From a virus, in IMG/VR virus record IMGVR_UViG_3300020057_000029, positions 1 to 64,000 of that record: a stretch of 64,000 bases of DNA; one strand, written 5' to 3'. Position numbers and translations under genes: made by a program. This document shows positions 1 to 20,121 of the stretch, in pieces. The notes below the pieces were generated by a model. It made no database searches. It worked only from the letters and a program-made list of their open reading frames with translations, and was not told the origin of the DNA. Each line of letters starts with the position of its first letter. Position 1 is the first letter of the stretch.

Positions 1-568
1 CAGACAGGTTAGCCCCAGACAGGATAGCCCCAGACAGGTCAGCCCCAGACAGGATAGCCCCAGACAGGATAGCCCCAGACAGGTCAGCCCCAGTCAGGTT
101 TGTCCAAGACAGGTCAGCCCTAGTCAGGTTTGCCCTAGTCAGGTTTGCCTTGGCCAGGTTTGCCTTAGTCAGGTTTGCCCTAGTCAGGTTTGCCCCAGAC
201 AGGCTTGCCCCAGACAGGTTTGCCTCAGACAGGTCAGCCTTGGTCAGGTTTGCCTCGAACAGGTTTGCCTGAGACAGTTTTGCTTTAGCCAGGAAAGCCC
301 TAGACAGGTTTGCCCCAAGAAGGTAGGTCCCAGACAGGTTTGCCCCGCGTAGGTCAACCCCAGTCAGGTTTGCCTGAGACAGGTCAGTCCAAGACATATT
401 TGCCTCAGACAGGTTTGCCCCAGTCAGGTTTGCTAAAGTCAGGTCAACCTTAGCCAGGTTTGCCCCGCGTAGGTCAACCCCAGACAGGTTTGCCCTTTCG
501 CCACTTTCTCCACCTTTTAAAAATATAGCGTGTAGTTTAAGGATGTTATCTAAAATTTGCTTATTCAT
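1..568 (-). CDS. Pentapeptide-repeat protein (paralog 1; runs off the window edge)
   Basis: ATG at 568 after GAGGTG SD; reads MNKQILDNILKLHAIFLKGGESGERANLSGVDLRGANL...; 15-nt A[DN]Lxx repeats continue to base 1. Confidence 0.9.
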   Translation of the reverse strand, partial: MNKQILDNILKLHAIFLKGGESGERANLSGVDLRGANLAKVDLTLANLTGANLSEANMSWTDLSQANLTGVDLRGANLSGTYLLGANLSRAFLAKAKLSQANLFEANLTKADLSEANLSGASLSGANLTRANLTKANLAKANLTRANLTRADLSWTNLTGADLSGAILSGAILSGADLSGAILSGANLS

Positions 569-638
569 AGTCACCTCTTTACTATACAATGCATTGACGG
601 TGCCAAACATAACTACGTGATATCATTAGATGCTAAAC
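566..638 (-). promoter_or_regulatory. sigma54-type promoter repeat copy 1 (truncated, no enhancer part)
   Basis: TTGGCACCGTCAATGCA (606-590) is GG-N10-GC; TATCACGTAGTTA IHF-like site; SD GAGGTG. Confidence 0.75.
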
Positions 639-649
639 TTCAATACCGA

Positions 650-868
650 TTATTGTTTGGTCAATTGTTCAATGCCTAAACAGTGCCTTTTGTATAACTT
701 TTTAGCGTCAATGAAGGTATCAGCGCAATCCCAAGCAACTCTAACACCATTTTTGTGGTTATACGTTCTAACATGATAGCAATCATGCTCCATCCAAAGC
801 GTTACCCTGTAACCCTTTTTTTCTTTTTCTTGCAAGTATCCGCATGAGAGTTCATATTTTGACAGCAT
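650..868 (-). CDS. Hypothetical phage protein
   Basis: ORF with AGGGG SD in a tightly packed operon. Confidence 0.7.
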   Translation of the reverse strand: MLSKYELSCGYLQEKEKKGYRVTLWMEHDCYHVRTYNHKNGVRVAWDCADTFIDAKKLYKRHCLGIEQLTKQ

Positions 869-880
869 AATGCCCCTTTG

Positions 881-1267
881 TTAAATTAAGTTACATTCTT
901 TTTCTAAAACGGCTTCATGTTTAAAAAAAATACATTGAAAGTCTGACGTTATAACATTGCTTGCATGATACACACTAAGCCTAAAGCCAAGATCTGTTAA
1001 ATTGTACAGTTCTTTAGAATTAAACCATTTTGCAAATTGCTCAAGAGAAATAAAGCCAAAAACATGGTAGGGATCATTTCCAAGACGTGATTCCAAATGC
1101 TTATTTAGCCCATCATCATAAGGCCCAGGACAGCCCGTTTCAAAGCTGTGCGTCCTAGTTGTCCATTCGGATACCCCATGCCCTACGATAGGGAAACTCC
1201 CACAATACGGCCCTAGCCCGTTTTTTTCCACGCGATACACTGTCACACAATCTAAAAACCTAATCAT
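881..1267 (-). CDS. Hypothetical phage protein, possible ADP-ribosyltransferase-like fold
   Basis: VYRVE..GPY / FGFxS.EQ..WF pattern; GGAG SD; fold is inference. Confidence 0.6.
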   Translation of the reverse strand: MIRFLDCVTVYRVEKNGLGPYCGSFPIVGHGVSEWTTRTHSFETGCPGPYDDGLNKHLESRLGNDPYHVFGFISLEQFAKWFNSKELYNLTDLGFRLSVYHASNVITSDFQCIFFKHEAVLEKECNLI

Positions 1268-1282
1268 ATTCGCTCCCTAAAT

Positions 1283-1918
1283 TTACTTATCGGCCAGGAT
1301 AGTATCAGTCAGGATAGTATCAGTCAGGTTTGCCCCGCGAAGGTTTGTCCCGAACAGGTCAGCCCCGATCAAGTTTGCCTTGGTCAGGTCAGCCCCAAAC
1401 AGGACGGCCCAAGTCAGGTCAGCCCCGCGTAGGTTTGCCCCAGACAGGCTTGCCTGAGACAGGTTTGCCTCGAACAGGTCAGCCTTAGCCAGGTTTGCCC
1501 CGCGTAGGTTTGCCCCAGACAGGTTTGCCTTGGTCAGGTCAGCCCCAAACAGGTCAGCCTCAGACAGGTCAACCCCAGACAGGTCAGCCCTAATCAGGTT
1601 TGCCCCAGCAAGGTTTGCCCCAGTCAGGAAAGCCCCAGTCAGGTTTGCCCTGGCCAGGTCAGCCCCGAATAGGTTTGCCCCAGACAGGTTTGCTAAAGCC
1701 AGGTCAGCCTTGAACAGGAAAGCCCCAGACAGGTCAGCCTTAGTCAGGTCAGCCCCGAACAGGATAGCCCCAGTCAGGTTTGCCCCAGATAGGTTTGCTA
1801 AAGCCAGGTCAGCCCCGTAAAGGTTTGCCCCGGTCAGGTTTGCCCTTTCCCCAGCCTTTTCACCTTTTAAAAACATAGCGTGTAGTTTAAGGATGTTATC
1901 TAAAATTTGCTTTTTCAT
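1283..1918 (-). CDS. Pentapeptide-repeat protein (paralog 2)
   Basis: A[DN]Lxx repeats; ATG at 1918 after GAGGTG. Confidence 0.92.
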   Translation of the reverse strand: MKKQILDNILKLHAMFLKGEKAGERANLTGANLYGADLALANLSGANLTGAILFGADLTKADLSGAFLFKADLALANLSGANLFGADLARANLTGAFLTGANLAGANLIRADLSGVDLSEADLFGADLTKANLSGANLRGANLAKADLFEANLSQASLSGANLRGADLTWAVLFGADLTKANLIGADLFGTNLRGANLTDTILTDTILADK

Positions 1919-2013
1919 AGTCACCTCTTAACTATACAATGCATTGACGGTGCCAAACATAACTACGTGATAACATTAGATGCTAAAAAACACTTTTGTA
2001 GAACTTTTAGACA
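1916..2013 (-). promoter_or_regulatory. sigma54-type promoter repeat copy 2
   Basis: -24/-12 box 1956-1940; IHF-like site; TGTAGAACTTTTAGACA at 1997-2013. Confidence 0.8.
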
Positions 2014-2053
2014 ATCGTACAATACCTGACCACTGGCCCTGTTCTAATGAATA

Positions 2054-2080
2054 CTTCAAGCCAAGTGATTAGGCTTGAAG
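2054..2080 (-). terminator. Stem-loop after 2118..2504
   Basis: CTTCAAGCC-N9-GGCTTGAAG inverted repeat; no clear U tail. Confidence 0.5.
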
Positions 2081-2117
2081 GTACGACAATTTTGCTTTTG
2101 CAACAATCATGCCACTC

Positions 2118-2504
2118 TTATTGTTTTTTGGGTATGGTTTTGTCAATGTAGCCAGTGTAACGGTAAACCTTGCACCACTGCGAATGCTGCCTTGTATAAT
2201 CTTTAAAACCTGTTTTGTATCCGCCACAATCGCAAAGGCTTTGAGGTTTTATCGTTGGTTCATTTTTTGCATCAGTCATTGCCCAGTAATTTCTAAATTC
2301 GTCAAGGTCTATCAAAACTATAGAATCATGATTAGAATGTGTTATATTGTTGAAACGCAAGCGTACTGAAATTGCATCCATATCTAGCAATTCTGCCGTA
2401 TTTCCAGTAATCAGTTTGACATATACAGCGCCTTTAAAAGCTTTGAAAACGCCATGGATATCCGAAAATTCATAACTACCTGCAATTGAGTCAATAGTTA
2501 GCAT
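2118..2504 (-). CDS. Hypothetical protein with C-terminal CxC...HxxxC motif
   Basis: ORF coupled to the upstream gene (TAATG overlap). Confidence 0.65.
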   Translation of the reverse strand: MLTIDSIAGSYEFSDIHGVFKAFKGAVYVKLITGNTAELLDMDAISVRLRFNNITHSNHDSIVLIDLDEFRNYWAMTDAKNEPTIKPQSLCDCGGYKTGFKDYTRQHSQWCKVYRYTGYIDKTIPKKQ

Positions 2505-2953
2505 TATGCCCCCATCTCATCCATAATTTCACGCATAGAGTCAAAAACACTGTTTGCAATTTTTACGCGCTCGTAAACTTGACCTTGCATCAAATCACCT
2601 GCTGCGCCAATGGCACTATGGCCCAGTTCTCGGGCTTGCTCATCGACGTAGCCCAAACGCTCAAGATTACTTGATACCCATGCTAAAAGATCACTTGTAT
2701 AGCTATCTGCTTCAATTTCATTTATTCTGTTTTCCATACCATCGTTTTCTGACTCAGATAGCATATACAGGGCATCTAGAGCATATTCATATTTATAGTC
2801 ATCGGGAGACATTCCCTCGTGAGCCGCCTGAACCAATTCTTTTAATTCTTTAGGCGCGCTATCTTTTAAAGAATAGAAACTAGCGCCATTAATGCGTTTT
2901 TTATGCTCAAATTGTTTCAAATAATCAGCGGCTAATTCTTGTATAGTTTTCAT
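2504..2953 (-). CDS. Acidic helical protein, possible Ocr-like anti-restriction DNA mimic
   Basis: D/E-rich; EIEADSYTSDLLAWVSS resembles the T7 Ocr core; inference. Confidence 0.55.
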   Translation of the reverse strand: MKTIQELAADYLKQFEHKKRINGASFYSLKDSAPKELKELVQAAHEGMSPDDYKYEYALDALYMLSESENDGMENRINEIEADSYTSDLLAWVSSNLERLGYVDEQARELGHSAIGAAGDLMQGQVYERVKIANSVFDSMREIMDEMGA

Positions 2954-2972
2954 ATATTTCCTTTTAATTAAG

Positions 2973-3206
2973 TTAAGCAGCTTTGCTAAAATTCACTTTT
3001 AGAATATTGCTATTGTTTTGCTCTAGTTCGACCATGCATTCCACGAAACGAAGGGCATCGATTGACTCATAAAGACTAGCAAGGCGCAGCATTATTTCAC
3101 TCATTTCCCTAGTGTCGTTTTGATTGCATTGTGCTAGTTCTTTCCGCACACTTTGGATTGCTTCAAAAGTCATCTTATAGCATTGTATTTTGGCTTCAGT
3201 TTTCAT
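2973..3206 (-). CDS. Hypothetical protein
   Basis: ORF with GAGG SD. Confidence 0.65.
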   Translation of the reverse strand: MKTEAKIQCYKMTFEAIQSVRKELAQCNQNDTREMSEIMLRLASLYESIDALRFVECMVELEQNNSNILKVNFSKAA

Positions 3207-3253
3207 ATTTACCTCTTTATTAAAATAATAAGATCAATTAGATTAGTTAACTA

Positions 3254-3685
3254 TCAAAAGGTCTGTTTGATGAATTCCATTTGTTCATATAATGTTAAGG
3301 CGTTCAAAAGAACTTCAAGCTTGGCGCATTGCTTTTCAGTTGTCTTTTCACCTCTCTCATAGCAGAACCCATTAGGATTAGGCGCTAAGCCATGAGATAC
3401 AATCTCAATTTCACTTTCAGCGCAAAGGTCAAGGATATTATCAAACTTTAATTGCGTTTTGGTTAGCAAAGGTAGCCCTTCCCGCAAACGCTCAATTTCC
3501 TTTGACTTTAGCTTGCGACAAGAAACATGGTGTTTACGCATAACGCCATGAATTGCGCAATATAAATAACCTTTTGTGTCAATATAGCTGACAGTAGCCT
3601 TGCAATCCTTAAACATATCACACTTAAGCATAATTATTCTCCCATGTAAAACAATGTTTTCTTGTTCATAGTTTAGCCCTTCCAT
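3254..3685 (-). CDS. Hypothetical protein (Cys/His-containing)
   Basis: ORF overlapping the upstream gene end. Confidence 0.6.
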   Translation of the reverse strand: MEGLNYEQENIVLHGRIIMLKCDMFKDCKATVSYIDTKGYLYCAIHGVMRKHHVSCRKLKSKEIERLREGLPLLTKTQLKFDNILDLCAESEIEIVSHGLAPNPNGFCYERGEKTTEKQCAKLEVLLNALTLYEQMEFIKQTF

Positions 3686-3885
3686 ACAACTTCAAAGCCT
3701 TGTTTCAAAGCGCCTTGAACCAATGCATCAAGGATAGTGCTTGCTTTGTATTCCTTGGAATGAATACCATCGAACCATACTGTCAAAGTATCACGGCCAT
3801 AATCTATGGCCATGCTTTGAGCATTCGGCACACGTTTGGCAAATGCTCTGAGTATTTCTGTTTTGCTTTGCTCTATTTTGTTCAT
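3673..3885 (-). CDS. Hypothetical protein
   Basis: ORF with AAGGGG SD. Confidence 0.7.
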   Translation of the reverse strand: MNKIEQSKTEILRAFAKRVPNAQSMAIDYGRDTLTVWFDGIHSKEYKASTILDALVQGALKQGFEVVWKG

Positions 3886-3897
3886 ATATCCCCTTAA

Positions 3898-4038
3898 AAG
3901 TCTAGCTGCGCGGTTACTGCTAGTAGTATTCCGAATTAGTTCGGCGACTTCGCCCGCTTGCCCTTGGCCCCTATTTACAGCTTCTAGTTAACCGATATTC
4001 GTCTGACTTATCCGCTGCGTATCCTTGCCAATCACTTA
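3898..4038 (-). ncRNA. Candidate structured leader / ncRNA
   Basis: GC-rich, no long minus-strand ORF, several complementary blocks; begins at the predicted +1 of promoter copy 3. Confidence 0.4.
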
Positions 4039-4044
4039 TTAGTA

Positions 4045-4163
4045 GTAATGCATTGACAATGCCAAACATAACTACGTGATATTACTAGATGCTAAAAAAC
4101 ACTTTTGTAGAACTTTTAGACAGTACCTGATATCATTGAATAATTCAGTAGTCACCTATACAG
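4045..4163 (-). promoter_or_regulatory. sigma54-type promoter repeat copy 3
   Basis: TTGGCATTGTCAATGCA 4065-4049; UAS-like 4106-4122; second site 4147-4162. Confidence 0.8.
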
Positions 4164-4207
4164 TTATGCCACAATATCATTACCATTTTTCAATTGATCG
4201 TATGCGC

Positions 4208-4402
4208 CTATTTCCATGGCCAAAGTCTTATAGTTTCTACAGCACTATCGAAACTGTCAATGGTTTCGCGGTGAAGTATCTGACCTTCCAATGTTTTGGT
4301 CACCTCATAACCTGCATGATCTTGTTCATAATCGTATACAGCAACCAACGAAACTGTCATTCCATTGTGCTCAATTCTTCTCATTGCTCTATTTAATTGC
4401 AT
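4208..4402 (-). CDS. Hypothetical protein, possibly frameshifted (alternate frame ends at TAA 4164-4166)
   Basis: AGGAG SD; alternate frame LAMEIGAYDQLKNGNDIVA* abuts repeat copy 3. Confidence 0.6.
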   Translation of the reverse strand: MQLNRAMRRIEHNGMTVSLVAVYDYEQDHAGYEVTKTLEGQILHRETIDSFDSAVETIRLWPWK

Positions 4403-4418
4403 ATTTAACTCCTAAATG

Positions 4419-4796
4419 TTATTCTAAATAAATTTGCCCATCGCCGCCGACAATGGCGTGCTGTTCTCCAAACTTTTTGCAAGCGTCGGTTAGTTTGTCC
4501 CCAATGTCGCCAAGGCCCCTATCCCAAAAGCCTACTCCATGCCGATTACGAGTTAACCAAAAATCATGGCCCGTTTGATCGGCGCACAATCCCTCTAATA
4601 GTGCAGCATTCTGTTCTACGAACTGTTCACAATCTTTTAGCGCCTTGGCATAGGATTCAGGCGCGATATCGTCAGCGTCGTAATTTCTTTCAAGAGGTAC
4701 CCCGCCTGACTCATTTGATTCATCAAGGCTGGACCATAAAGCGCACACAATATAGTGTTGAACCATTTCGTATATAAAAGCTTCTTTATTAAGCAT
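4419..4796 (-). CDS. Conserved acidic phage protein (GHDFWLTRNxHGxGFWDR family)
   Basis: Recognisable phage motif; AGGAG SD. Confidence 0.75.
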   Translation of the reverse strand: MLNKEAFIYEMVQHYIVCALWSSLDESNESGGVPLERNYDADDIAPESYAKALKDCEQFVEQNAALLEGLCADQTGHDFWLTRNRHGVGFWDRGLGDIGDKLTDACKKFGEQHAIVGGDGQIYLE

Positions 4797-4805
4797 ATTT
4801 AACTC

Positions 4806-5027
4806 CTAAAATTGTGTATGGAAAAGGCTTGCCGCTATCCCATGCCTGTAGGTATCGACAAAAATTTCGCCATAGATATCATTAGTCAAAAGATAGCTTA
4901 TAGTAACATCGCTTTCATTGCTTGCTTGTAGGGCTAGCCTATGCGCCTCTTTCAAGCTTGAAGTTTTCACAGAATCAATTGCTTGCTTATAGGCATAGCA
5001 TTTGCGTATCCAATATGTTTTTCTCAT
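4806..5027 (-). CDS. Hypothetical protein
   Basis: ORF with GAGG SD. Confidence 0.65.
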   Translation of the reverse strand: MRKTYWIRKCYAYKQAIDSVKTSSLKEAHRLALQASNESDVTISYLLTNDIYGEIFVDTYRHGIAASLFHTQF

Positions 5028-5034
5028 ATTTCCT

Positions 5035-5226
5035 CTATTCCATCCTAATTACGTGGCATGTATAATCACCATTACCAATTGCGCTAACAGGCTTTTTGGT
5101 ATGTTTCATCAAGAAGCCCATATAATCCATTGCAGCGCTTAACGTGGCAAAAGTCAAAACTGTATCAATTGCAATGCCTTTTAGTGGACCTTTTACGATA
5201 TACTTCATAAACTTTACTTTATACAT
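5035..5226 (-). CDS. Hypothetical protein
   Basis: ORF with GAGGAG SD. Confidence 0.7.
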   Translation of the reverse strand: MYKVKFMKYIVKGPLKGIAIDTVLTFATLSAAMDYMGFLMKHTKKPVSAIGNGDYTCHVIRME

Positions 5227-5276
5227 GATATCTCCTCAATAATTGATAACTTCAAAGACTTTCATACAGTACGTAA

Positions 5277-5392
5277 TGCATTGACAGTGCCAATGCTAAG
5301 TTGTTGATAACACTAAGGCACTAAAAAACACTTTTGTAGAACTTTTAGACAGTACCTGATATCACTAGATTATTCAGTAGACACCTAGACAG
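5277..5392 (-). promoter_or_regulatory. sigma54-type promoter repeat copy 4
   Basis: TTGGCACTGTCAATGCA 5293-5277; consensus IHF site TATCAACAACTTA; UAS-like 5335-5351. Confidence 0.8.
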
Positions 5393-6100
5393 TTATTCGG
5401 CCAAAATAGTATCAGACAGTTTTGCCCCGCGTAGGTCAGCCTCAGACAGGTCAGCCCCGAACAGGTTTGCCTTAGACAGGTTTGCCTTAGACAGTTTTGC
5501 CTTAGACAGTTTTGCCCAATACAGGTTTGCCCCAGTCAGGTTTGCCCCAGACAGGTTTGCCCCAGACAGGTTTGCCCCAGTCAGGTTTGCCTTAGACAGT
5601 TTTGCCTTAGACAGTTTTGCCCAATACAGGTTTGCCCTAGTCAGGTTTGCCCCAGCAAGGTAGGTCTTAGACAGGTTTGCCCCAGACAGGTTTGCCCCGC
5701 GAAGGTTTGCCCCAGTCAGGTCAGCCCCAGACAGGTCAGCCTTGAACAGGAAAGCCCCAGACAGGTCAGCCTTGAACAGGTTTGCCCCGGTCAGGTTTGC
5801 CTGAGACAGGTCAGCCCCAGTCAGGTTTGCCTTAGACAGGTTTGCCTTAGACAGGTTTGCCCCAAGAAGGTTTGCCCCGAATAGGTTTGCCCCAGTCAGG
5901 AAAGCCTCAGACAGGCTTGCCCTAGACAGGTTTGCCCTAGTCAGGATTGCCCCGAACAGGTTTGCCCCAGTCAGGTTTGCCCCAGTCAGGTCAGCCCCAA
6001 TCAGGTTTGCCCAAGACAGGTTTGCCCTTTCCCCAGTTTCTTCATCTTTTAAAAACATAGCATGTAGTTTAAGGATGTTATCTAAAATTTGCTTTTCCAT
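5393..6100 (-). CDS. Pentapeptide-repeat protein (paralog 3)
   Basis: A[DN]Lxx repeats; same N-terminus as paralogs 1 and 2; ATG at 6100. Confidence 0.92.
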   Translation of the reverse strand: MEKQILDNILKLHAMFLKDEETGERANLSWANLIGADLTGANLTGANLFGAILTRANLSRASLSEAFLTGANLFGANLLGANLSKANLSKANLTGADLSQANLTGANLFKADLSGAFLFKADLSGADLTGANLRGANLSGANLSKTYLAGANLTRANLYWAKLSKAKLSKANLTGANLSGANLSGANLTGANLYWAKLSKAKLSKANLSKANLFGADLSEADLRGAKLSDTILAE

Positions 6101-6110
6101 AGTCACCTTT

Positions 6111-6437
6111 TCAATCCTGGTTATTCATGGCGTCGATTCTATTCATTTCATCGCTTTCTACTACGCGGAAAGTATCGGGAGAAGGGACAAGATCGCATAT
6201 TAAATGGGCTATTTCCAAGGCCTCGCGCTTGGTAGAAGCCATAACGGCATTATATCCACCATTTACCCAATTGAAAACCCATTGTTTAGGGCCTTTGCCG
6301 AAACGACGCTCAAAAGCTTCATCGGAAAGGTCAAGAATTTTACTATAGTGGCGCTCGAATTCAAAAATGGTTCCTCCCTGCTGCGAGTGAAGGGCACAAA
6401 GGCGGGAAAGACGTGTTTCGGGCATTTTCTTATTCAT
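6111..6437 (-). CDS. Hypothetical protein
   Basis: First gene after promoter copy 5; GAGGT SD. Confidence 0.7.
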   Translation of the reverse strand: MNKKMPETRLSRLCALHSQQGGTIFEFERHYSKILDLSDEAFERRFGKGPKQWVFNWVNGGYNAVMASTKREALEIAHLICDLVPSPDTFRVVESDEMNRIDAMNNQD

Positions 6438-6440
6438 ACT

Positions 6441-6574
6441 GTTACCTCTTTACTATACAATGCATTGACAATGCCAATGCTAAGTTGTTGATATCATTAG
6501 ATGCTAAAAAACACTTTTGTAGAACTTTTGGTCAGTACCCGATATCATTGAATAATTCAGTAGTCACCTATACA
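6441..6574 (-). promoter_or_regulatory. sigma54-type promoter repeat copy 5
   Basis: Box 6477-6461; IHF TATCAACAACTTA; UAS-like 6518-6534. Confidence 0.8.
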
Positions 6575-7125
6575 CTAGCATAAGAAGGATTAGCATAAGA
6601 AGGATTACCGTAATAATCACATTTAACTATAGATGGAAAGTAACCTGACTTTTCCATGTAGGCTTCGATAAGCTTATTTCGGCTTTCTACAGTCTCGTAA
6701 TCACGCTTGGAGATAAACCATTTATTACTGTCTTGGTCTAATACATCACCTTCATGATTAATCACAATGCAAGGCCCTTCGGATGTAGTGATGCAGTCAT
6801 TTTCAAAATCAATACCGATAAATTCTAAATCAAAGTATTCTTTCAGCAATTCGCGCTCTAATTTATCTTTTGTATCAATCAATAGACTAAGGTCAACCCT
6901 AATCCATGCATGGAAACTATCATCGTACGGTACAGTAGTCAATTCTCTAGAATTGCCCAATGATTCTACCATCTTGGCAATGATAGCTCTCTTGGTTTTC
7001 ATTTCCATACTGAATACCCTTATAGCCTTGTCTTTTAATTTAATCAATTCCTTTTCTTTATCGGCACTGATTGCAACCATTTGTTTTTTGATACGGTTAA
7101 GCATACGAATTTTCATTTTCCACAT
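6568..7125 (-). CDS. Hypothetical protein
   Basis: 185-aa ORF; its stop codon lies inside repeat copy 5. Confidence 0.7.
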   Translation of the reverse strand: MWKMKIRMLNRIKKQMVAISADKEKELIKLKDKAIRVFSMEMKTKRAIIAKMVESLGNSRELTTVPYDDSFHAWIRVDLSLLIDTKDKLERELLKEYFDLEFIGIDFENDCITTSEGPCIVINHEGDVLDQDSNKWFISKRDYETVESRNKLIEAYMEKSGYFPSIVKCDYYGNPSYANPSYASV

Positions 7126-7370
7126 CCATCTTGGTCTAGCTCATAGATTTTTCCGCTATCGTCCTTTTCCAACAAAAACCATGCGCCTTGCCCACATTGG
7201 TATTCTCGGTGTAAAGTTCCATCCTCTAGTAGCCAAAAATTCCAGATGCCAGGAATTCCAGACACTTTTAATCTGCTTTTTGCCTTTTTGATTGCTTCGC
7301 GTTTTGTCATCTTCAGTTTCCTTTTTGCTGCCTTGATTGCTTCTTGCTTATTCATCAATCTCTCTCTCAT
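7113..7370 (-). CDS. Basic hypothetical protein (start uncertain)
   Basis: Internal duplicated KxEAIKxAK motif. Confidence 0.55.
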   Translation of the reverse strand: MRERLMNKQEAIKAAKRKLKMTKREAIKKAKSRLKVSGIPGIWNFWLLEDGTLHREYQCGQGAWFLLEKDDSGKIYELDQDGCGK

Positions 7371-7665
7371 GGGCTTCTCTTTCTGCCATATACCAAACAA
7401 GAAGGTTCTTGCGCGTATCAATAGCGTTTAGCATATCCTTGCGCTCAAAAGTAGCAGTCAATTCATCTATGCATTCGTAGCCCATGTCAAAAGCATCACA
7501 ATTCAAGGCTTCAAATATTTCATCTTCAAATTGATCATAAAGAGTTACGCAATCAGCAGTATAGGTTATATTAGGAAAACCTGCCTCACAACCATGATTA
7601 CGGATATCTTCGGCAAAATCAATCAAATGCTTATCAAACCATTGTTTAAAAGTCTGTTTTTCCAT
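7348..7665 (-). CDS. Acidic phage protein (HGCxxG...YxxD family), possible anti-defence
   Basis: ATG at 7665 after GAGGTG; D/E-rich. Confidence 0.7.
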   Translation of the reverse strand: MEKQTFKQWFDKHLIDFAEDIRNHGCEAGFPNITYTADCVTLYDQFEDEIFEALNCDAFDMGYECIDELTATFERKDMLNAIDTRKNLLVWYMAEREAHEREIDE

Positions 7666-7803
7666 AGTCACCTCTTAACTATGTAGTGCATTGACAATGC
7701 CAAACATAACTATGTGATATCATTAAGGCACCTAAAAAACGACAATGTAGAACTTTTGGTCAGTACCCGATATCATTGAATAATTCAGTAGTCACCTAGA
7801 CAC
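7663..7803 (-). promoter_or_regulatory. sigma54-type promoter repeat copy 6
   Basis: Box 7703-7687; UAS-like 7746-7762. Confidence 0.8.
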
Positions 7804-7807
7804 TTCT

Positions 7808-7970
7808 AAGGTACAAGGTATTAGCTATAGGCACAAGGAACAGGGCATAAGGTACAAGATATTAGCTATAAGCACGGGATAGGAAGGGAATAAGGCATAA
7901 GGCATAGGGAACAAGGAATAAGGAATAGGGATAGGGAATAGGGAATAGGAATAAGGAATAAGGAATAGGT
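7808..7970. repeat. Purine-rich degenerate short repeat tract (AAGGAAT/AGGGAAT/AAGGCAT)
   Basis: About 13 GGA motifs in ~135 nt. Confidence 0.85.
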
Positions 7971-8085
7971 TACGCGACAAGAAGCGGCCTGATATCGCGC
8001 ATCTTGCTAATGGCCACTATATAAGTCAAGTAAAGCAAAATCACGTAACCATATGATAATGCTGAGATAATAGCTACGTGGTCAA

Positions 8086-8101
8086 TTGGCATAAACTTTG
8101 C
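8086..8101 (+). promoter_or_regulatory. Candidate plus-strand sigma54 promoter
   Basis: TTGGCATAAACTTTGC matches the TGGCA-N6-TTGC consensus. Confidence 0.55.
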
Positions 8102-8176
8102 CATAAGCTCAAGTCTTATATAATCGTTATGGCCAAAAAATAGCAATATAAGGCCGTTTTGTGCCCCGCGCATCTC

Positions 8177-8280
8177 ACCTGACCAAGCTTTAAACAGGCT
8201 TCACCTGACCAAGCTTTAAACAGGCTTTACCTGACCAAGCTTTAAACAGGCTTTACCTGACCAAGCTTTAAACAGGCTTT
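8177..8280. repeat. 4 x 26-bp tandem repeat ACCTGACCAAGCTTTAAACAGGCTT(T/C)
   Basis: Copies start at 8177, 8203, 8229, 8255. Confidence 0.95.
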
Positions 8281-8489
8281 CTTTCTCTACGCTTTATGAT
8301 CTTTGCAGGATATTGTGGGCAATTCACACGGTATTCCTTAAGCCTTGTATTGGCTTCTTGTCTGGATTCTTCCGTCAATTCGTGTTCATAACCTTGCCCA
8401 TAGTCAACATGTAACTCCCATGTATCTATAGTTTTGCGCACGGCCTTTGATGGAAGGTTTACAAAAAAAGGCGTTAGTGGATTATTCAT
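8268..8489 (-). CDS. Hypothetical phage protein
   Basis: YGxGxE...EYRxNxP pattern; stop codon lies in the last repeat copy. Confidence 0.7.
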   Translation of the reverse strand: MNNPLTPFFVNLPSKAVRKTIDTWELHVDYGQGYEHELTEESRQEANTRLKEYRVNCPQYPAKIIKRRERKPV

Positions 8490-8490
8490 A

Positions 8491-8640
8491 TTATTCCTTT
8501 ACCGATAAAAATATCAAATTGCATTCTTTTACTTTTAGGCTCATTGCTGCGCCATGCATTGCATTCCGCATAGTACTGCCTTTAACGCTTATGGTTCGTG
8601 AGTCTAAGTTATTGCCAAAAACGAAAACTAAAAGCTTCAT
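8491..8640 (-). CDS. Small hypothetical protein (49 aa, MKLLVFVFGNNL...)
   Basis: ATG after GAGGT SD directly downstream of promoter copy 7; below the ORF-track cutoff. Confidence 0.7.
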   Translation of the reverse strand: MKLLVFVFGNNLDSRTISVKGSTMRNAMHGAAMSLKVKECNLIFLSVKE

Positions 8641-8776
8641 AGTTACCTCTTAACTATACAATGCATTGACAATGCCAAACATAACTACGTGATAACATTA
8701 AGGCACCGAAAAACGATAGTGTAGAACTTTTAGACAGTACCTGATATCATTGAATAATTCAGCAGACACCTATACA
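8638..8776 (-). promoter_or_regulatory. sigma54-type promoter repeat copy 7
   Basis: Box 8678-8662; UAS-like 8720-8736. Confidence 0.8.
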
Positions 8777-8850
8777 GTACAAGACACCTATACAGTAGAC
8801 ACTACAAGGCACAAGGCACCTATACAGTAGACACCTAGTCACCTAGTCAC
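8761..8850. repeat. Tandemly amplified GACACCTATACAGTA-like sites
   Basis: About 5-6 degenerate copies of the distal motif of the promoter repeat. Confidence 0.75.
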
Positions 8851-9209
8851 ATATATAGGATGAAAGCCCACAAGGTATCATAGAGGAGACTGTCAATAGT
8901 TTGGTCAAGGTAACTATGCGGTATGTATAGCAAATAGCCTACGACAATGCAAGGTGTCTAATGTTTAGTGTAAATGCCTCAGTGAGGAGATAGGTGTATC
9001 CTGACAGCTACACCTGTTATATCTCTGACATGTATCTGTGCAACTATGCGAAATATTGAGGGAAAACGTGTTTCCCGTGATTGGTGTATATAGTTTGGTC
9101 AACCCCTGAGGTATATGCTCAGACACAAACCAAAATTTCCTGATAATTTTTGTCAAAAAGACCTCTAAAATTTTTTTAAAATTTTTCCAGAAAAGTGCTA
9201 CAATATCAA

Positions 9210-11899: not shown

Positions 11900-12130
11900 G
11901 TGTTTATGATTTCCGACAGGATTTTGACAAGGATAAACAAGCGCACAATAAAAATTCCATATCAAGGAAATACTGAATACAGCGTGATATTAGCAGCTAT
12001 CCCAGTTGATATCCGCGTTCAAAAGATCTTTTCTGCCGTAGTAAGAGAAAAGGCTTTAAGTTATTTAAAAATCGAGATAATTGGAAAAATTCCCAAACGC
12101 GGTCTTTGGATATACATGGTGGTTATTTAA
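11900..12130 (+). CDS. Hypothetical protein
   Basis: ORF in operon. Confidence 0.55.
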   Translation: MFMISDRILTRINKRTIKIPYQGNTEYSVILAAIPVDIRVQKIFSAVVREKALSYLKIEIIGKIPKRGLWIYMVVI

Positions 12131-12720
12131 TGAGTATCAAAAAATTGTATTTAATAAGACACGGTAAAAGCGAAGCTAACGAGAATTACGATATCTTGTT
12201 TACGAAGGATGACAAAGACATTCAGCTTGCAGAGCAGGGGTATCACGATGCTGTTCAGGTTGGTAAAACTCTTAAGGAAATGTTAACCCCAGGAGCATCC
12301 ACGATCTTTGTGGTTTCTCCTTGGACCAGAGCTTTTCAGACCTACAGGATCGCTTCAACCGTGCTGAAAGATTTTTCTGAACCGTGCATCCACGAGGGTA
12401 TTGTTGAGCACGACATGAATCTTAAAGACCATCCTGTTAACTGGGAAAAATTTCTCAAGTACAAACATAGCAAATGGTCTGTGGAGCAACATCTTCATGT
12501 AAGATTCGATGGTGGCGAAAGTTTAGCCGATGTTAGGGAGCGGGCCAAGACCTTCCTGGGATTCGTAGAAGAGCTCGCCCACGCGCTGGGCCATGACAAT
12601 ATCGTGGTTGTATCGCACGGACAATTTATCAAAATGGTCTTGGCCGAAATGGACGGAACGGACCCACAAACAATGACTCATCCTAAGAATGGTGAAATAA
12701 TTGTAAGGGAAGTCAAATGA
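12130..12720 (+). CDS. Histidine phosphatase (phosphoglycerate mutase family)
   Basis: LIRHG, SPW.RA.QT, GES, VSHG motifs. Confidence 0.9.
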   Translation: MSIKKLYLIRHGKSEANENYDILFTKDDKDIQLAEQGYHDAVQVGKTLKEMLTPGASTIFVVSPWTRAFQTYRIASTVLKDFSEPCIHEGIVEHDMNLKDHPVNWEKFLKYKHSKWSVEQHLHVRFDGGESLADVRERAKTFLGFVEELAHALGHDNIVVVSHGQFIKMVLAEMDGTDPQTMTHPKNGEIIVREVK

Positions 12721-12836
12721 AAAAGGAAACGCAGTAAAATCAGGCGCTTAGACGTGTTCATTGTTAGCGAACAAAGATCTGTTAGTGAACAAAGATTTTT
12801 ATTGAATACCTTCTCTAGATTTGGTAGGATTAAAAG

Positions 12837-13124
12837 ATGGAAAACGTTATTAGTTTGAAGAAGGCTCGCATTGAAAAAGACTGCGTCACGTTGTTTGCTG
12901 GGTATAAAGCAAGGATTGTTCTTATGGACAAAGAGGAAATTGCTGTAGAAATTTCTCGCTTCCAAAAAGAGATGCACAATTATCCAAACCATCTTTTGAC
13001 CCTGGTTAAAGGAAGAATCCTTCTAAATGCCCTTATCGCCCGTGGCAATGTGAATCCGGCAATTCCCAAATTGCTTCAAACTATTCGCGACAGATTTCAA
13101 GAGCGCATGAGAGATCTGCGATGA
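12837..13124 (+). CDS. Hypothetical protein
   Basis: ORF. Confidence 0.65.
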   Translation: MENVISLKKARIEKDCVTLFAGYKARIVLMDKEEIAVEISRFQKEMHNYPNHLLTLVKGRILLNALIARGNVNPAIPKLLQTIRDRFQERMRDLR

Positions 13125-13197
13125 CTACGCGACAAAAGCTAAAGACTAAAACCAATATAGAAGCAATTGCAGACAAAATTATCAAAAGGAGCTCCAA

Positions 13198-13386
13198 ATG
13201 AAACCATCTGAAAAACTTCAAAGCCTGTTAAAATATCGTGCTGACCACGAGACACGTTTGATCAGTCCCGTTCCAGAAAAACATAAGAATCACCCTGAAG
13301 CCCACAAAGACTATCTCCGGCTGGAGATCAAAAAAACAACCGCAAAAATCGACAAACTTAAAATGTCAGTGTCCGAAGGAAAATAA
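13198..13386 (+). CDS. Hypothetical protein
   Basis: AGGAG SD. Confidence 0.65.
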   Translation: MKPSEKLQSLLKYRADHETRLISPVPEKHKNHPEAHKDYLRLEIKKTTAKIDKLKMSVSEGK

Positions 13387-13596
13387 GTGTCAAAAGATAG
13401 TCCTGTACCCGTTGTCCCCAAAAACACCAAAACTTTGAAACATGACACTGAAATTACATTGCCCGATGGTGTACATCTGAAGATAGACTGGAATAATTCC
13501 GCTCTTACTATTAAGCTGAATGGTCGTGTAATTGATGTTTCATCCAAATCCACCCGCGTTGTTGTTGGTCGAAATCCAGAAGCTACAGATTCGTAG
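13387..13596 (+). CDS. Hypothetical protein
   Basis: GTG start adjacent to the upstream stop. Confidence 0.55.
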   Translation: MSKDSPVPVVPKNTKTLKHDTEITLPDGVHLKIDWNNSALTIKLNGRVIDVSSKSTRVVVGRNPEATDS

Positions 13597-13651
13597 CCCT
13601 CTTTTCGTCAAAAATACTATAGATTTATCCTAATTCTTCTTTGGAGCCCAA

Positions 13652-15277
13652 ATGAAAAGCGCTTACGATGTTTTCACAAACAAATATTCTTATGACACCT
13701 TCCTTCAAAAATATTCTAAGGATGGAGTAGAAACCTGGGCCGATACGGCCAAAAGAGTTGTAGAATCGGTATGTGCCCAACTCGTAGACAACAAGACTAG
13801 AGAGAAAATCTATCAGCTTATTCTAGAGCGCAAATTCATTCCAGGCGGTCGTTATTTATATGCTGCTGGTCGAGAATTTCACCAAGTAAACAATTGTTTT
13901 CTCTTCCGCCCAGAGGACAGTCGCGAGTCATGGGCCGAACTCCAGTCAAAAGGCTGTACATCCCTGATGACAGGCGGTGGCATTGGCGCTGAGTATTCTA
14001 AAATCCGTGAAGAAGGTGCTATCATTCGTCGCACTGGCGGAAGATCAACTGGTCCAATAGCTCTAATGAATATGGTAAACGAGTCTGGACGATATATCAT
14101 GCAGGGTGGCCAGCGCAGATCGGCTATTTGGGCAGGCTTGAATTGGTCACATCCAGATATTTTAAAGTTTATGGTCATGAAAAACTACTCACCAGCATTA
14201 AAAGCCGCCAAAAAAGCCGATTTAACCTTTCCCTTGCCAATGGAGCTCACCAACATTTCTGTGGTTTATGACACAGAATTTTTTATTGCAATTGAGAATG
14301 TAGATCATCCAAAACATCAATTGGCTTTAAAAGTGTATCTGCAGAACTGTTTTCAGGCCTTTTCGACTGCAGAGCCAGGTATGAGTTTTAATTTCCGTAA
14401 GGACAATGAGAACCTTCGTAATGCCTGCACTGAAGTCGTAAGTGAAGATGACTCTGACAAATGCAATCTTGGGACAGTATGGATGAATCGCTGTAAAACC
14501 AAAGTGGAATTTGCTGAAGCATGTAAATATGGGACAATTTTCTTGCTTTGTGGCGGAATTTACAGCCATGTACCTACTGAAAAAATTCGTGAAGTCGGCC
14601 TTAGAAACAACCGCATTGGTTTGGGCCTTGGCGGTATTCATGAATGGCTCATGATTCGTGGATCTGAATATGAAGCCACTCCAGAGCTACACAAATGGCT
14701 CTCGATTTACGAACAAGAAAGCGATTCAGCCGCATTTGTTGGCGCAAAGCAGCTAGGAGTATCAGTTCCTAAAGGCGTCCGTGCCATTGCCCCCACAGGC
14801 ACTATTGGCATTATTGCAGAAACCACTACCGGCATAGAGCCTTTGTTCTGTAAGGCCTACAAGCGCAGGTATTTCAAAGATGGTAGGTGGCTACACCAGT
14901 TCGTAGTAGATGGATCAGTTAAACGCCTAATGGACATGGGTGTTAAATTAGAAAACATTAAAGATTCTTATGATTTGACGTTCAAGCAAAGAGTGAAATT
15001 CCAAGCAGATGTTCAGAATCATGTAGATATGCCTATCTCTTCGACATGTAACATGCCACCGTGGGGTTCTGAATCAAATAATGAAAGTAATTATGAGAAG
15101 AATGCTAACATGCTTCTTAAATATGCTAAACGATTGCGTGGATTTACAGTGTATCCAGACGGATGCAGAGATGGTCAACCTCTGACCAGGGTTGATCTAA
15201 AAGAAGCCCTAGAGTCCGAAGGCAAGGTGTTTGAAGAAAACGAAAACAACTGTGTTAACGGAGTTTGTGGATTATAG
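13652..15277 (+). CDS. nrdJ: Ribonucleotide reductase, probably class II (B12-dependent)
   Basis: PGGR..., NNC, GGGIG, NACTE, CNLG, APTGT, TTGIEP, C-terminal CVNGVC; no beta-subunit gene in the window. Confidence 0.85.
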   Translation: MKSAYDVFTNKYSYDTFLQKYSKDGVETWADTAKRVVESVCAQLVDNKTREKIYQLILERKFIPGGRYLYAAGREFHQVNNCFLFRPEDSRESWAELQSKGCTSLMTGGGIGAEYSKIREEGAIIRRTGGRSTGPIALMNMVNESGRYIMQGGQRRSAIWAGLNWSHPDILKFMVMKNYSPALKAAKKADLTFPLPMELTNISVVYDTEFFIAIENVDHPKHQLALKVYLQNCFQAFSTAEPGMSFNFRKDNENLRNACTEVVSEDDSDKCNLGTVWMNRCKTKVEFAEACKYGTIFLLCGGIYSHVPTEKIREVGLRNNRIGLGLGGIHEWLMIRGSEYEATPELHKWLSIYEQESDSAAFVGAKQLGVSVPKGVRAIAPTGTIGIIAETTTGIEPLFCKAYKRRYFKDGRWLHQFVVDGSVKRLMDMGVKLENIKDSYDLTFKQRVKFQADVQNHVDMPISSTCNMPPWGSESNNESNYEKNANMLLKYAKRLRGFTVYPDGCRDGQPLTRVDLKEALESEGKVFEENENNCVNGVCGL

Positions 15278-15280
15278 TGG

Positions 15281-15309
15281 TTGACTAAAGAAGAGTGATT
15301 TGATATGAT
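15281..15309 (+). promoter_or_regulatory. sigma70-type promoter, likely giving a leaderless mRNA (ATG 15317)
   Basis: TTGACT-17-TATGAT. Confidence 0.6.
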
Positions 15310-15316
15310 TGAATTC

Positions 15317-15664
15317 ATGTTCTACCAATTATTTATAATATCTCTATGTTCAGGAACCTCAGGCAATTATAATCAAGCCTGTAACAAAACTGTTGAAGCC
15401 ACCTCTATCACTGTGGGCGTAAACCAATTTGAGAATCAGATTACTCAATATGGAAATGAAAAAGGCCAACGCATTTTTGGCAAAGAAGCCTGGAACACAA
15501 CTGGATTTATTGGCGGTATAACCTATCAGAGTGTGGTTAAGAAAAGTGTGGCCTATAAGATTAAGACTAAAAAAGAGTTTATCGGTGCTGATTTTGTCAA
15601 GCCCCAACTTGACTATAAAGATGGTCAACGCGGTGCTTCCATGTCTTTAGGATGGTCCTGGTGA
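15317..15664 (+). CDS. Putative exported/outer-membrane protein
   Basis: Hydrophobic N-terminus; C-terminal alternating strand ending in W. Confidence 0.6.
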   Translation: MFYQLFIISLCSGTSGNYNQACNKTVEATSITVGVNQFENQITQYGNEKGQRIFGKEAWNTTGFIGGITYQSVVKKSVAYKIKTKKEFIGADFVKPQLDYKDGQRGASMSLGWSW

Positions 15665-15909
15665 GGCTTCCAGAATATTCTCTCAAAAAAGGCATCCAGG
15701 TAAAAGATCCGTCTACCCCTCACGGTGATCCTGTGGAATTCCCTTCTGGCACTCTAGTATTTCCATTTTGGAACGAAACCTTGCTTCCAGAACATGTTTA
15801 CGAACAGCTCAAAGAGGCAACTCGTTATGGTAAAGAAAAGCTAATTATGTGTTTGATAGGGCGTACTTGGATTCCACTTCCAAAGCAAGTTATCAGGGAT
15901 AACCGATGA
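15661..15909 (+). CDS. Hypothetical protein
   Basis: ORF overlapping its neighbours. Confidence 0.6.
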   Translation: MRLPEYSLKKGIQVKDPSTPHGDPVEFPSGTLVFPFWNETLLPEHVYEQLKEATRYGKEKLIMCLIGRTWIPLPKQVIRDNR

Positions 15910-16661
15910 GTATCAAATATGACATCCAAGAATTTGAAAATCTTGTAAAAGAAGGCTACCTGAGAAGCTCTACTAAAGGGGGTTTGATCCTTTTTGACTA
16001 TACCGACAAAACCGCTTTCGAGCGCAACTGGAGTCAATTTACCAAGATCTCGCGCGGTTTGATTCTAGAAGCTGATACAGGGTTGCTTGTAGCAAAACCA
16101 TTTCCCAAATTTTTCAACCTGGGCGAGACGGAAGAGACATCTATAGATAGGCTTCCTATGCAACAGGGCTACAAATCATTTGAGAAGGTGGATGGCTCTT
16201 TAGGTATCATCTTCAATTATCAAGGCTACTGGAACATATCTACTCGCGATAGCTTCTATTCTGACCAAGCCGGTGTAGCTCAAATCATGCTTAAGCAATA
16301 CAATATGATGTCGATCCCAGACAGCATCACGCTTTTGGTTGAAATTATCTATCCAGAAAACAAGATTGTGGTAGACTGCAGGGGTCAAAAGAAGCTCGTG
16401 TTTCTTGGTGCCTTTGACCGTGAAACGGGTGAAGAGGTTCCTCCAGAGCAAGCTGAAAAGTATGCTAGTTTAATGTTTATGGAGTGCGCTAAAAAATATG
16501 ACCTTACCATTGAGCAGATGATCGTCCTGCAAAAGACCCTTTCTGAGGATGATGAAGGTTTTGTGGTGCGTTTCAACAATGGTTTGCGCGTGAAGATCAA
16601 AGGTGAAGAATATCTCAGAATTGCCAAGATAATTTCTCAAATGTCTCTAGTTTCTTTTTAG
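15906..16661 (+). CDS. T4 Rnl1-like RNA ligase (possibly truncated by TAG)
   Basis: RGLI, KPFPKFFN, EKVDGSL, EII, EGFVV, VKIK motifs. Confidence 0.85.
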   Translation: MSIKYDIQEFENLVKEGYLRSSTKGGLILFDYTDKTAFERNWSQFTKISRGLILEADTGLLVAKPFPKFFNLGETEETSIDRLPMQQGYKSFEKVDGSLGIIFNYQGYWNISTRDSFYSDQAGVAQIMLKQYNMMSIPDSITLLVEIIYPENKIVVDCRGQKKLVFLGAFDRETGEEVPPEQAEKYASLMFMECAKKYDLTIEQMIVLQKTLSEDDEGFVVRFNNGLRVKIKGEEYLRIAKIISQMSLVSF

Positions 16662-16728
16662 GAATCCATGAAAGATAAGACGTTAAAGCTACAAAAACCT
16701 ATTTGTGAAGTGATTATTAGGAGTTACA

Positions 16729-17058
16729 ATGTTGCACGGTGATGTTCCAGAAGGTGACAAGAAGACCGCTGAAGCCTTGAGAAAGATGGAAATTGACATG
16801 GAAGAACAGGCTACCCTTTCTCCACAATATACAGCACAGGCCTTTGTATGTTTAGCTCACGACTGGTACGAAATGGGCTCTGAAGAGGAAGGCCACAGAC
16901 TGCTTAAAAAGGCCGATATCGTCTGTCCAGAATATTTTAGAAAACATATGCAATCTCATACTTTGGAAAATTCAGCATTTGAGCTATTAGTGAACAGACT
17001 GTTCGCAATGTTGGGCTGGCAGTTACTTGACAGTCTTAAGGATAAAAACAATGTGTGA
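16729..17058 (+). CDS. Hypothetical helical protein
   Basis: AGGAG SD. Confidence 0.65.
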   Translation: MLHGDVPEGDKKTAEALRKMEIDMEEQATLSPQYTAQAFVCLAHDWYEMGSEEEGHRLLKKADIVCPEYFRKHMQSHTLENSAFELLVNRLFAMLGWQLLDSLKDKNNV

Positions 17059-17275
17059 TATTTGCACTAGATGGAAGAAACGCGAAATTAATGGTAAAGA
17101 AGCTATGGTTTTGATCGGAACCGCTTTAAAAACTGCCGAAAAAGTCAGCAAGGAACACTTGACAAAGCTGGCCTCTAAAATACTAGACGATGAAGTTCCT
17201 TTTAGTCACACTGATCCACAAGCAGAACGAGCCTTCTGGCACAGGACTCATAGGAGAGAAAATGAAGAAAGCTAG
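17051..17275 (+). CDS. Hypothetical protein (MCDIC start)
   Basis: ORF. Confidence 0.6.
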   Translation: MCDICTRWKKREINGKEAMVLIGTALKTAEKVSKEHLTKLASKILDDEVPFSHTDPQAERAFWHRTHRRENEES

Positions 17276-17388
17276 CCCTAAGACCGTGATTTGCTTGACG
17301 GTAATCTATGTTGGATTTGCGCTCGTCACAGGTTACAATATTTATGAGGGGTGTGAAAAACCTTACTATGAAATGAGCAAAATATCTT

Positions 17389-17877
17389 ATGGAAATTTTA
17401 AAATTCCCAAACCCTAGCCTGTCTGTTGTCTGCAGCAAGGTAACGGTCTTTGGACCTGAACTTAAGATTATATTACGGTCAATGTGGGACACTTTAAAGG
17501 CTACCAAAGGGATCGGACTGGCCGCAAATCAAGTTGGTCTTAAATATCGCATATTTGTAATGGAAGGTCCAGACAAAGAACAGTTGTTTTTTATCAATCC
17601 TGTGATATCATCCAGTTCCCTAAAAATAAGCTCTTTAAAAGAAGGGTGTCTTTCTGCTCCAGGCGAGATTATATGTACCGGAACACGCTGGGATTCGGTA
17701 TCGATTAGATTTCAAGACGAAAAAGGCCAAGAATGCACTAAAGTTTTTAAGGGGATTCACGCTGTTTGCGTACAGCATGAGATCGAACATTTAAATGGTA
17801 AAAATTTTATGAGTTCTAAGTATATCCCAAGAGAACGTAGGAAATATTTGGTCAAAAAATGGGGCCTTAAAAAGTGA
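17389..17877 (+). CDS. def: Peptide deformylase
   Basis: GIGLAANQ, EGCLS, QHEIEHLNG. Confidence 0.95.
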   Translation: MEILKFPNPSLSVVCSKVTVFGPELKIILRSMWDTLKATKGIGLAANQVGLKYRIFVMEGPDKEQLFFINPVISSSSLKISSLKEGCLSAPGEIICTGTRWDSVSIRFQDEKGQECTKVFKGIHAVCVQHEIEHLNGKNFMSSKYIPRERRKYLVKKWGLKK

Positions 17878-18098
17878 AAAAGATTTTTAGAGAAACCAAA
17901 AAGACATTTAAAAAACTTCCAGTGCTCATATGGGCAGTTGCCATCGTTGTGCCTGGTGGTTTTTTAGCAATTGGGGTTTATGCGGCAACTAAAATTTACT
18001 TAAACAGAAGAAAAAATGGCAAAAAAGAATAAATTAATTGCCATTTTTCGTTATGAGGCTATAGAGATGAGAGAATACGAAGACTGTGACGGATTTTA

Positions 18099-19216: not shown

Positions 19217-19261
19217 TTTTATCGACTATTCTAACCTTGTAGGTACAATCAGGAGTAACAA

Positions 19262-19661: not shown

Positions 19662-19777
19662 TGATTTCGGCTATATACCAATAATGTAGACCATATTTGC
19701 AATTTTCTGAATATGATTTGCATTGCCGATAAAACTAGTTTACTCTATATCTAGATACTAAATTTAAGGAGAAATCA

Positions 19778-20113: not shown

Positions 20114-20121
20114 AGGTTGCC

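Follow-up and report, generated by a model that had tools for sequence, protein, structure and literature searches.

Candidate sigma54-class promoter cassettes in the accessory-gene arm of an environmental Mx1-like myovirus

Sigma54 promoters are silent until an ATP-driven activator opens the closed complex, and at enhancer-dependent bacterial examples such as glnAp2, nifH, Pu and pspA a loop assisted by integration host factor (IHF) takes part. Pseudomonas aeruginosa phage YuA reportedly carries a few sigma54 promoters, which serve its particle-formation and lysis region. YuA is the one well-documented phage precedent in the literature consulted: it depends strictly on host sigma54 (PMC5053324; PMC10914365, both with reference to Ceyssens et al, 2008, J Bacteriol 190:1429), and phage use of host sigma54 has been called "rare but not unprecedented" (PMC5053324; PMC10914365). 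T4-type phages carry promoter-early stem-loop (PeSL) cassettes, in which a terminator hairpin is combined with a sigma70 early promoter (PMC2839356, PMC4122927). Here we analyze a repeated cassette in a minus-strand gene arm of IMG/VR virus record IMGVR_UViG_3300020057_000029 (155,223 bp, completeness estimate 96%), the first 64 kb of which (64,000 nt) form the window of this study. The phage, a myovirus, encodes homologues of baseplate-wedge proteins. Its sole cultured relative is Myxococcus phage Mx1, which shows 29.5% identity over a conserved 609-amino-acid protein of unassigned function that adjoins the baseplate genes; megablast searches with 9.6 kb and 24 kb against cultured phages returned zero matches.

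An initial annotation of the window had described seven copies of a cassette that joins a sigma54 promoter to IHF and enhancer sites. We found seven exact matches to the pattern TGGCAYNGTCAATGCA, all on the minus strand (590, 1940, 4049, 5277, 6461, 7687 and 8662), compared with 0.37 in shuffled sequences; the whole 155,223-bp record contained no further match, even at one mismatch. Each match belongs to a cassette of 100–140 bp with the invariant core TTGGCAYYGTCAATGCA, and the sub-elements listed in the annotation were borne out by the seven-copy alignment and the motif positions. Numbering the C of the GC pair as −12 places the predicted +1 at 579, 1929, 4038, 5266, 6450, 7676 and 8651, the same coordinates that had been proposed. 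A conserved element, TG(TCT/ACC)AAAAGTTCTACA, stands at a fixed offset in copies 2–7 (termed UAS1 below); it had been considered absent from copy 1, where the motif is indeed not intact, yet a degenerate remnant, TTGACCAAACAAT, occupies the same offset. The second upstream site, described for copies 3–7, is present in them as TGT(A/C)TAGGTG.CT(A/G)CTG (UAS2) at about −125, and an IHF-like string starts at −43. In copies 1, 2, 5, 6 and 7, GAGGT and then ATG follow 21–23 nt past the box; the leaders are longer in copy 4 (~50 nt) and copy 3 (~160 nt). The seven copies are as follows:

Cassette copy 1, 566–664, minus strand: core 590–605 (TGGCACCGTCAATGCA); TGATATCA/IHF-like variant at ~618–625; UAS1 remnant 652–664; directly followed by the Shine-Dalgarno sequence and ATG of a pentapeptide-repeat gene; predicted +1 at 579.
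Cassette copy 2, 1916–2014, minus strand: core 1940–1955; UAS1 (TTGTCTAAAAGTTCTACA) 1996–2014; lies before a pentapeptide-repeat paralogue; predicted +1 at 1929.
Cassette copy 3, 4025–4162, minus strand: core 4049–4064; UAS1 4105–4123; TGAATTATTCA and TGATATCA palindromes; UAS2 (TGTATAGGTGACTACTG) 4146–4162; serves the gene starting at 3885, after the ~160-nt leader.
Cassette copy 4, 5253–5391, minus strand: core 5277–5292; exact IHF-consensus string TATCAACAACTTA; UAS1 5334–5352; UAS2 5375–5391; serves the gene starting at 5226, after the ~50-nt leader.
Cassette copy 5, 6437–6574, minus strand: core 6461–6476; exact IHF-consensus string; UAS1 6517–6535; UAS2 6558–6574; Shine-Dalgarno sequence and ATG at 6437.
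Cassette copy 6, 7663–7802, minus strand: core 7687–7702; UAS1 7745–7763; UAS2 7786–7802; lies before the DUF7222 gene (7348–7665).
Cassette copy 7, 8638–8776, minus strand, first in the direction of transcription: core 8662–8677; UAS1 8719–8737; first UAS2 8760–8776.

The sigma54 consensus is said to have been given by Barrios et al. in 1999 as TGGCAC-N5-TTGCW. The seven copies agree with it at 9–10 of 11 positions, as do two diverged sites elsewhere in the record; all nine read TGGCAY-N6-TGCA, with GG and GC 10 nt apart. The diverged sites, at genome positions 154045 (TGGCATAACCAGTGCA) and 150752 (TGGCACTAATCCTGCA), are both on the minus strand in non-coding DNA, shortly before a start codon, and have only TGGCAY-N6-TGCA and UAS1 in common with the cassette. 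Together with a stand-alone box at 2099–2114, they make the annotated number of seven an undercount. Four of the seven cores form a perfect 6+1+6 palindrome of 13 bp (GCATTG-T-CAATGC), which the interiors of the diverged sites (AACCAG and TAATCC) destroy. Because of this palindrome, and because some 60 matches of similar quality occur in the genome, resemblance to the consensus alone cannot decide the nature of the core. The bipartite form itself is enriched: TGGCAY-N6-TGCA occurs 12 times in the genome versus 1.07 expected, shifting the spacing by −2, −1, +1 and +2 leaves 0, 0, 1 and 1 matches, respectively, and ten of the 12 boxes are non-coding, though 92.8% of the genome is coding according to a crude open reading frame (ORF) call.

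To find relatives we aligned the 609-amino-acid protein, and the thirteen related records recovered in this way contained 30 TGGCAY-N6-TGCA boxes versus 2 for a reversed-pattern control, so that the GG/GC spacing on which the annotation had relied is kept in related phages. The boxes are clustered, with seven in 5 kb in relative G002, five in 7 kb in G005 and four in 4.4 kb in G009. They group in regions of small genes, where the majority occupy stretches that lack a long open frame and point toward an ORF, and their spacers vary. Relative G001 has four boxes versus 0.4 expected and none at any other spacing; three boxes are located in the divergent control region at its ends. The full cassette core was not found in G001, and the relatives' sites were recovered only with the loosened bipartite pattern. 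Scanning IMG/VR for exact occurrences of the 17-mer core never yielded more than one match at a locus, a result that chance can account for. A logo built from 44 non-redundant sites carries information only in two blocks, which are fixed by the search pattern itself. Its interior (−20 to −16) is essentially free, at ~0.13–0.16 bit per position, and it shows preferences for T/Y at −27 and A/T-T-A at −10 to −8, with no fixed −10 hexamer. Start codons cluster 11–13 nt and 23–24 nt past TGCA; with +1 placed 12 nt from the GC, these distances fit nearly leaderless and short Shine-Dalgarno mRNAs.

UAS1 is the best-supported accessory site and looks enhancer-like from its placement. Its core TGNYYAAAAGWT (full form TG.YYAAAAGTTCTACA) begins between −84 and −86 in every cassette copy as well as at site 150752; the start lies at −97 at site 154045 and at −85 in four G005 sites. 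Eight of its nine minus-strand matches in the genome stand beside a box. The enhancer-like site that had been placed at about −76 thus keeps its position (about −85 to −69) both here and in a relative. Between the two phages, the linker separating UAS1 from the box (42 bp in G005) is 40–55% identical, compared with up to 85% for UAS1 in the best pair. Because the linker diverged while UAS1 and its position were conserved, selection has kept UAS1 and its distance. An antisense sigma70-like promoter, TAGACA-16-AATAAT on the plus strand, overlaps UAS1 in copies 3–7. We rejected it as the cause of UAS1 conservation, since inspection by eye revealed no −10-like hexamer at the right distance at sites 154045 and 150752.

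Taken together, a sigma54 (RpoN)-class promoter is the best explanation of the cassettes, and we regard it as probable, with appreciable room for error. Strict spacing, a free interior, blocks one helical turn apart and orientation toward genes form a sigma54-class signature and fit poorly with a palindromic operator or a sigma70 promoter. Of the original sigma54 reading, this part is supported, including the non-coding, gene-facing location; its IHF part is weak. Several observations weigh against the assignment. Matches at 9–10 of 11 positions to TGGCAC-N5-TTGCW are common, with the ~60 in the genome mentioned above, and at position −15 every cassette copy has A instead of the consensus T. 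UAS1, to which an enhancer shape had been ascribed, has weak dyad symmetry, unlike most sites of bacterial enhancer-binding proteins (bEBPs). The annotation had proposed searching candidate host genomes for the same motif, and UAS1 beside sigma54-type boxes was not found in the chromosomes of two metagenome-assembled genomes (MAGs) that contain related phage contigs. No bEBP gene (PF00158, Sigma54_activat) was found in this phage or in ten relatives, and three relatives with large records (Mx1, G003 and G004) have no box.

Some of these points would suit a bipartite promoter read by host core polymerase under a phage-encoded specificity factor, either a divergent sigma or a sigma appropriator. 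Neither the phage nor ten relatives encode an activator, large phages often bring sigma-like proteins that Pfam misses, and the boxes are specific to a sub-clade, being absent from Mx1, G003 and G004. In both its conserved letters and its strict one-turn spacing, however, the box matches the sigma54 class exactly. Nothing usable came from searches for sigma70 regions 2 and 4, sigma54 and T7-type polymerase, and if the genes are early the factor must travel in the virion; we consider such a factor unlikely. Recombination offers another account, according to which the repeats are mainly patches that shuffle gene modules, as with PeSL in T4-type phages, and their promoter content is incidental. 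The copies are indeed mosaics of two alternative sub-block versions, and the cassettes bound small accessory gene modules. A role in recombination is, however, compatible with promoter function, cannot explain why boxes, UAS1 and spacing alone are kept in the diverged sites and in distant relatives, and is not accompanied by any terminator hairpin with the repeats, and as the main purpose of the repeats it seems to us rather improbable.

The 13-bp palindrome GCATTG-T-CAATGC raises the question of whether the core is an operator bound by a dimeric protein, either a repressor or one of partition type, since it is perfect (6+1+6) in four of the seven copies and the cassette holds other palindromes, TGATATCA and TGAATTATTCA. 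Yet TGGCAY and TGCA persist where the palindrome is lost, in copies 1, 2 and 4 and at both diverged sites, position −15 varies freely in relatives, and the motif is asymmetric and nearly always faces a gene at a set distance from its start codon, which makes an operator very unlikely in our judgment. Least credible of all is a sigma70-type promoter with TTGGCA as −35 and TATAGT as −10, even though TTGGCA matches TTGACA at five of six positions, TATAGT in five copies matches TATAAT at five of six, and A/T-rich strings containing TA follow TGCA in many relatives. The 14-bp spacer is outside the working range, copies 3 and 4 lack TATAGT despite an invariant box, and the TA string of the relatives lies at a variable distance (14–17 bp), with no fixed hexamer in the logo. 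In four related sites the ATG comes 1–2 nt past the TA string, too close for a sigma70 start, and a sigma70-consensus scan returned zero minus-strand matches at the cassettes.

If the cassettes are sigma54-class promoters, TGGCAY would supply the −24 GG and (A/T)TGCA the −12 GC. Host RNA polymerase with sigma54 would bind as a closed complex, to be opened by an ATP-dependent activator bound upstream, for which UAS1 (TGNYYAAAAGWT..ACA, starting at −85) is the best candidate site; UAS2, the TGATATCA sites and the A/T-rich linker might help bending or looping. The predicted start, 12 nt beyond the C of the GC, would yield leaders of ~10–13 nt whose 5′ ends lie immediately ahead of the Shine-Dalgarno sequence. 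Successive operons would be headed by nine or more such promoters and comprise ~38 accessory genes on one strand, which extend from genome position 146 kb across the record end as far as 9.3 kb, and these small genes would probably need host sigma54 and an activator. The arrangement of the elements, their enrichment, the strict spacing and the recurrence in other phages are shown by the sequences, from which we infer sigma54 dependence, the start site and the identity and origin of the activator; early timing is suggested by gene content and position only.

The annotation had seen no activator gene in the window, and the search of the whole genome (PF00158) found none either. Since neither this phage nor ten relatives encode a bEBP, the activator that such promoters need is hypothetical, and a host bEBP is an economical guess. 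A sigma54 gene was likewise not found in this genome or in ten relatives, nor was sigma70 region 2 in this genome. A search of the genome for T7-type RNA polymerase gave zero matches, with the control genomes also silent, so that absence is not demonstrated. One weak sigma70 region-4 match in the arm was discarded, the sole Pfam match of that ORF being an HNH_3 endonuclease domain. Two MAGs, one of Saprospiraceae and one of Flavobacteriaceae (Bacteroidota), include contigs that encode homologues of the 609-amino-acid protein; such binning is weak evidence for the host. Both MAGs carry rpoN (Sigma54_DBD genes). A Bacteroidota host fits poorly, because the Shine-Dalgarno core precedes 45% of phage ORFs versus 8.5% in the background and a canonical TTGACT-17 promoter is present at 10605. 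The peptide deformylase of the phage fell into mixed viral, Bacillota and Pseudomonadota clusters in the ESM Atlas and points to no host.

IHF sites had been proposed as a cassette component, and this assignment is weak. The consensus WATCAANNNNTTR is exact in two of the seven copies (TATCAACAACTTA, copies 4 and 5), the other five having TATCAC(G/A)TAGTTA; it was not found in exact form at sites 154045 and 150752 or at the G005 sites, and it has 32 exact matches genome-wide. The IHF-like stretch is a second copy of the TGATATCA palindrome, which recurs at −97. The A/T-rich linker would fit bending by any nucleoid protein. Ten of the 12 minus-strand genome matches to TAGGTG.CT, the central part of UAS2, lie within the cassette-bearing stretch. 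Two further features precede copy 7 in the direction of transcription:

UAS2-type array, 8776–8850, minus strand: four more TAGGTG.CT units just upstream of copy 7.
Control region, 8896–9102, minus strand, non-coding, upstream of the arm: two UAS1-like half-sites (TTGACCAAACTAT) at ~8896–8908 and ~9090–9102.

The copies are mosaic, with alternative versions of sub-blocks such as CATC-T versus TGCCTT and ACGTAGTTATGT versus AACAACTTAGCA; given this mosaicism, the cassettes may also act as homology patches between gene modules. The ~160-nt leader of copy 3 (window 3886–4048, minus strand) is rather G+C-rich and without an ORF. A structured RNA in it is unsupported, as there are no Rfam matches and folding is no better than in shuffles (z = +0.74); an Rfam scan of 1–12 kb likewise gave zero matches. 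One box in the window stands apart from the cassettes:

Stand-alone box TGGCATGATTGTTGCA, 2099–2114, minus strand: just past the stop codon of ORF 2118–2504; without UAS1.

It is followed by a perfect hairpin with a 9-bp stem at ~2054–2080, and the pair may represent a small RNA or a chance box beside a terminator.

The two terminal 136-nt stretches of the record (window 1–136 versus genome 155088–155223) are 99.3% identical, which indicates a circular or terminally redundant genome; the arm therefore continues across the record ends, and sites 154045 and 150752 belong to it. Position 1 interrupts a pentapeptide-repeat gene, which ends at the far side of the record. By the same crude ORF call, the minus-strand arm, which extends from about 9.3 kb back past position 1 to ~146 kb, contains ~38 small ORFs with a median length of 112 amino acids. 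They include pentapeptide-repeat paralogues, the DUF7222 protein, an HNH endonuclease and many proteins without a family match. At least six pentapeptide-repeat paralogues occur along the arm (window 2–610, 1283–1924 and 5393–6106; L175 2200–3318 and 9130–9648), five of them checked in Pfam. The three window copies whose start was read have a common head, M.KQILDNILKLHA.FLK, and two paralogues lie directly behind cassette copies 1 and 2; these proteins could be putative DNA mimics. The HNH_3 homing-endonuclease gene (L175 4718–5359, minus strand, equal to genome 149717–150358) belongs to the operon that follows the diverged 150752 box. Within the arm, three tandem repeats of 26 nt (98–100% identical) and a decayed fourth (67%) occupy window 8177–8306 and span the stop codon of gene 8268–8489, and ~170 nt of pyrimidine-rich short repeats (CCTTATT-like, minus strand) fill window 7810–7975 between a gene end and cassette copy 6. 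The opposite arm (window 12106–20985, plus strand) encodes a histidine phosphatase, a ribonucleotide reductase, two RNA-ligase-family proteins, peptide deformylase and ThyX.

The proteins of the putative early genes led to no close relatives, and a 185-amino-acid ORF gave zero matches. The DUF7222 protein matched only unrelated phages, at ~36% identity, and none of three such loci had a −24/−12 box; at one of them a sigma70-like promoter was read by eye upstream of the gene. In G001 (L129), the 12-mer AAAAGTGTTTTT occurs five times on the plus strand (8315, 11415, 11907, 12693 and 15010), in four cases directly before a Shine-Dalgarno sequence and ATG. It is also present at about −68 in cassette copies 2–5 and may be a second regulatory signal common to the phage group. 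The phage contigs binned into the two MAGs have the same divergent, multi-box control regions. On two phage-like contigs of the Flavobacteriaceae MAG, four boxes, two per strand, lie within ~230 bp (L171, G015:C24, 11807–12033) and three tandem boxes within ~115 bp (L172, G015:C35, 499–599). From these sequences, control regions with several −24/−12 boxes seem typical of this phage group.

We put forward only tentatively, as something we doubt somewhat more than we believe, the broader proposal that a sub-clade of large environmental Mx1-like myoviruses runs its accessory arm only from sigma54 promoters, with a fixed upstream site and no phage-encoded AAA+ activator. If so, expression of these genes would depend on how one particular enhancer-binding protein of the host is signalling, or the phages would open sigma54 closed complexes in a new, non-canonical way. 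A sigma54-gated block of phage genes would tie them to a host signal or to a factor delivered by the phage. The same design recurs in uncultured phages of 100–170 kb and provides a comparative set defined by the box pair, the fixed −85 site and starts that are nearly leaderless, in which UAS1 could be used as bait for the activator and hence the host.

Like YuA, this phage would use −24/−12 promoters read with host RpoN for part of its programme while encoding neither sigma54 nor an activator. YuA is a virulent 59-kb siphovirus, whereas the phage described here is a 155-kb Mx1-like myovirus, in which at least nine multi-element cassettes with a fixed upstream element precede operons of small accessory genes, a feature common to a group of uncultured relatives. 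The dependence of YuA was demonstrated in an rpoN mutant; that of the present phage is predicted from sequence. With bacterial IHF-looped sigma54 promoters the cassettes have in common the GG-N10-GC core, an upstream site ~60–100 bp away and an A/T-rich linker, and they differ from them in the slight dyad symmetry of UAS1, in its placement, which varies by no more than ~1 bp, and in having the exact IHF consensus in just two copies. As in the PeSL system, short repeated regulatory cassettes lie between small variable genes of a large myovirus, and their mosaicism suggests exchange; unlike PeSL cassettes, they show no minus-strand terminator-like hairpin or sigma70-type match and appear to carry a sigma54-type promoter instead.

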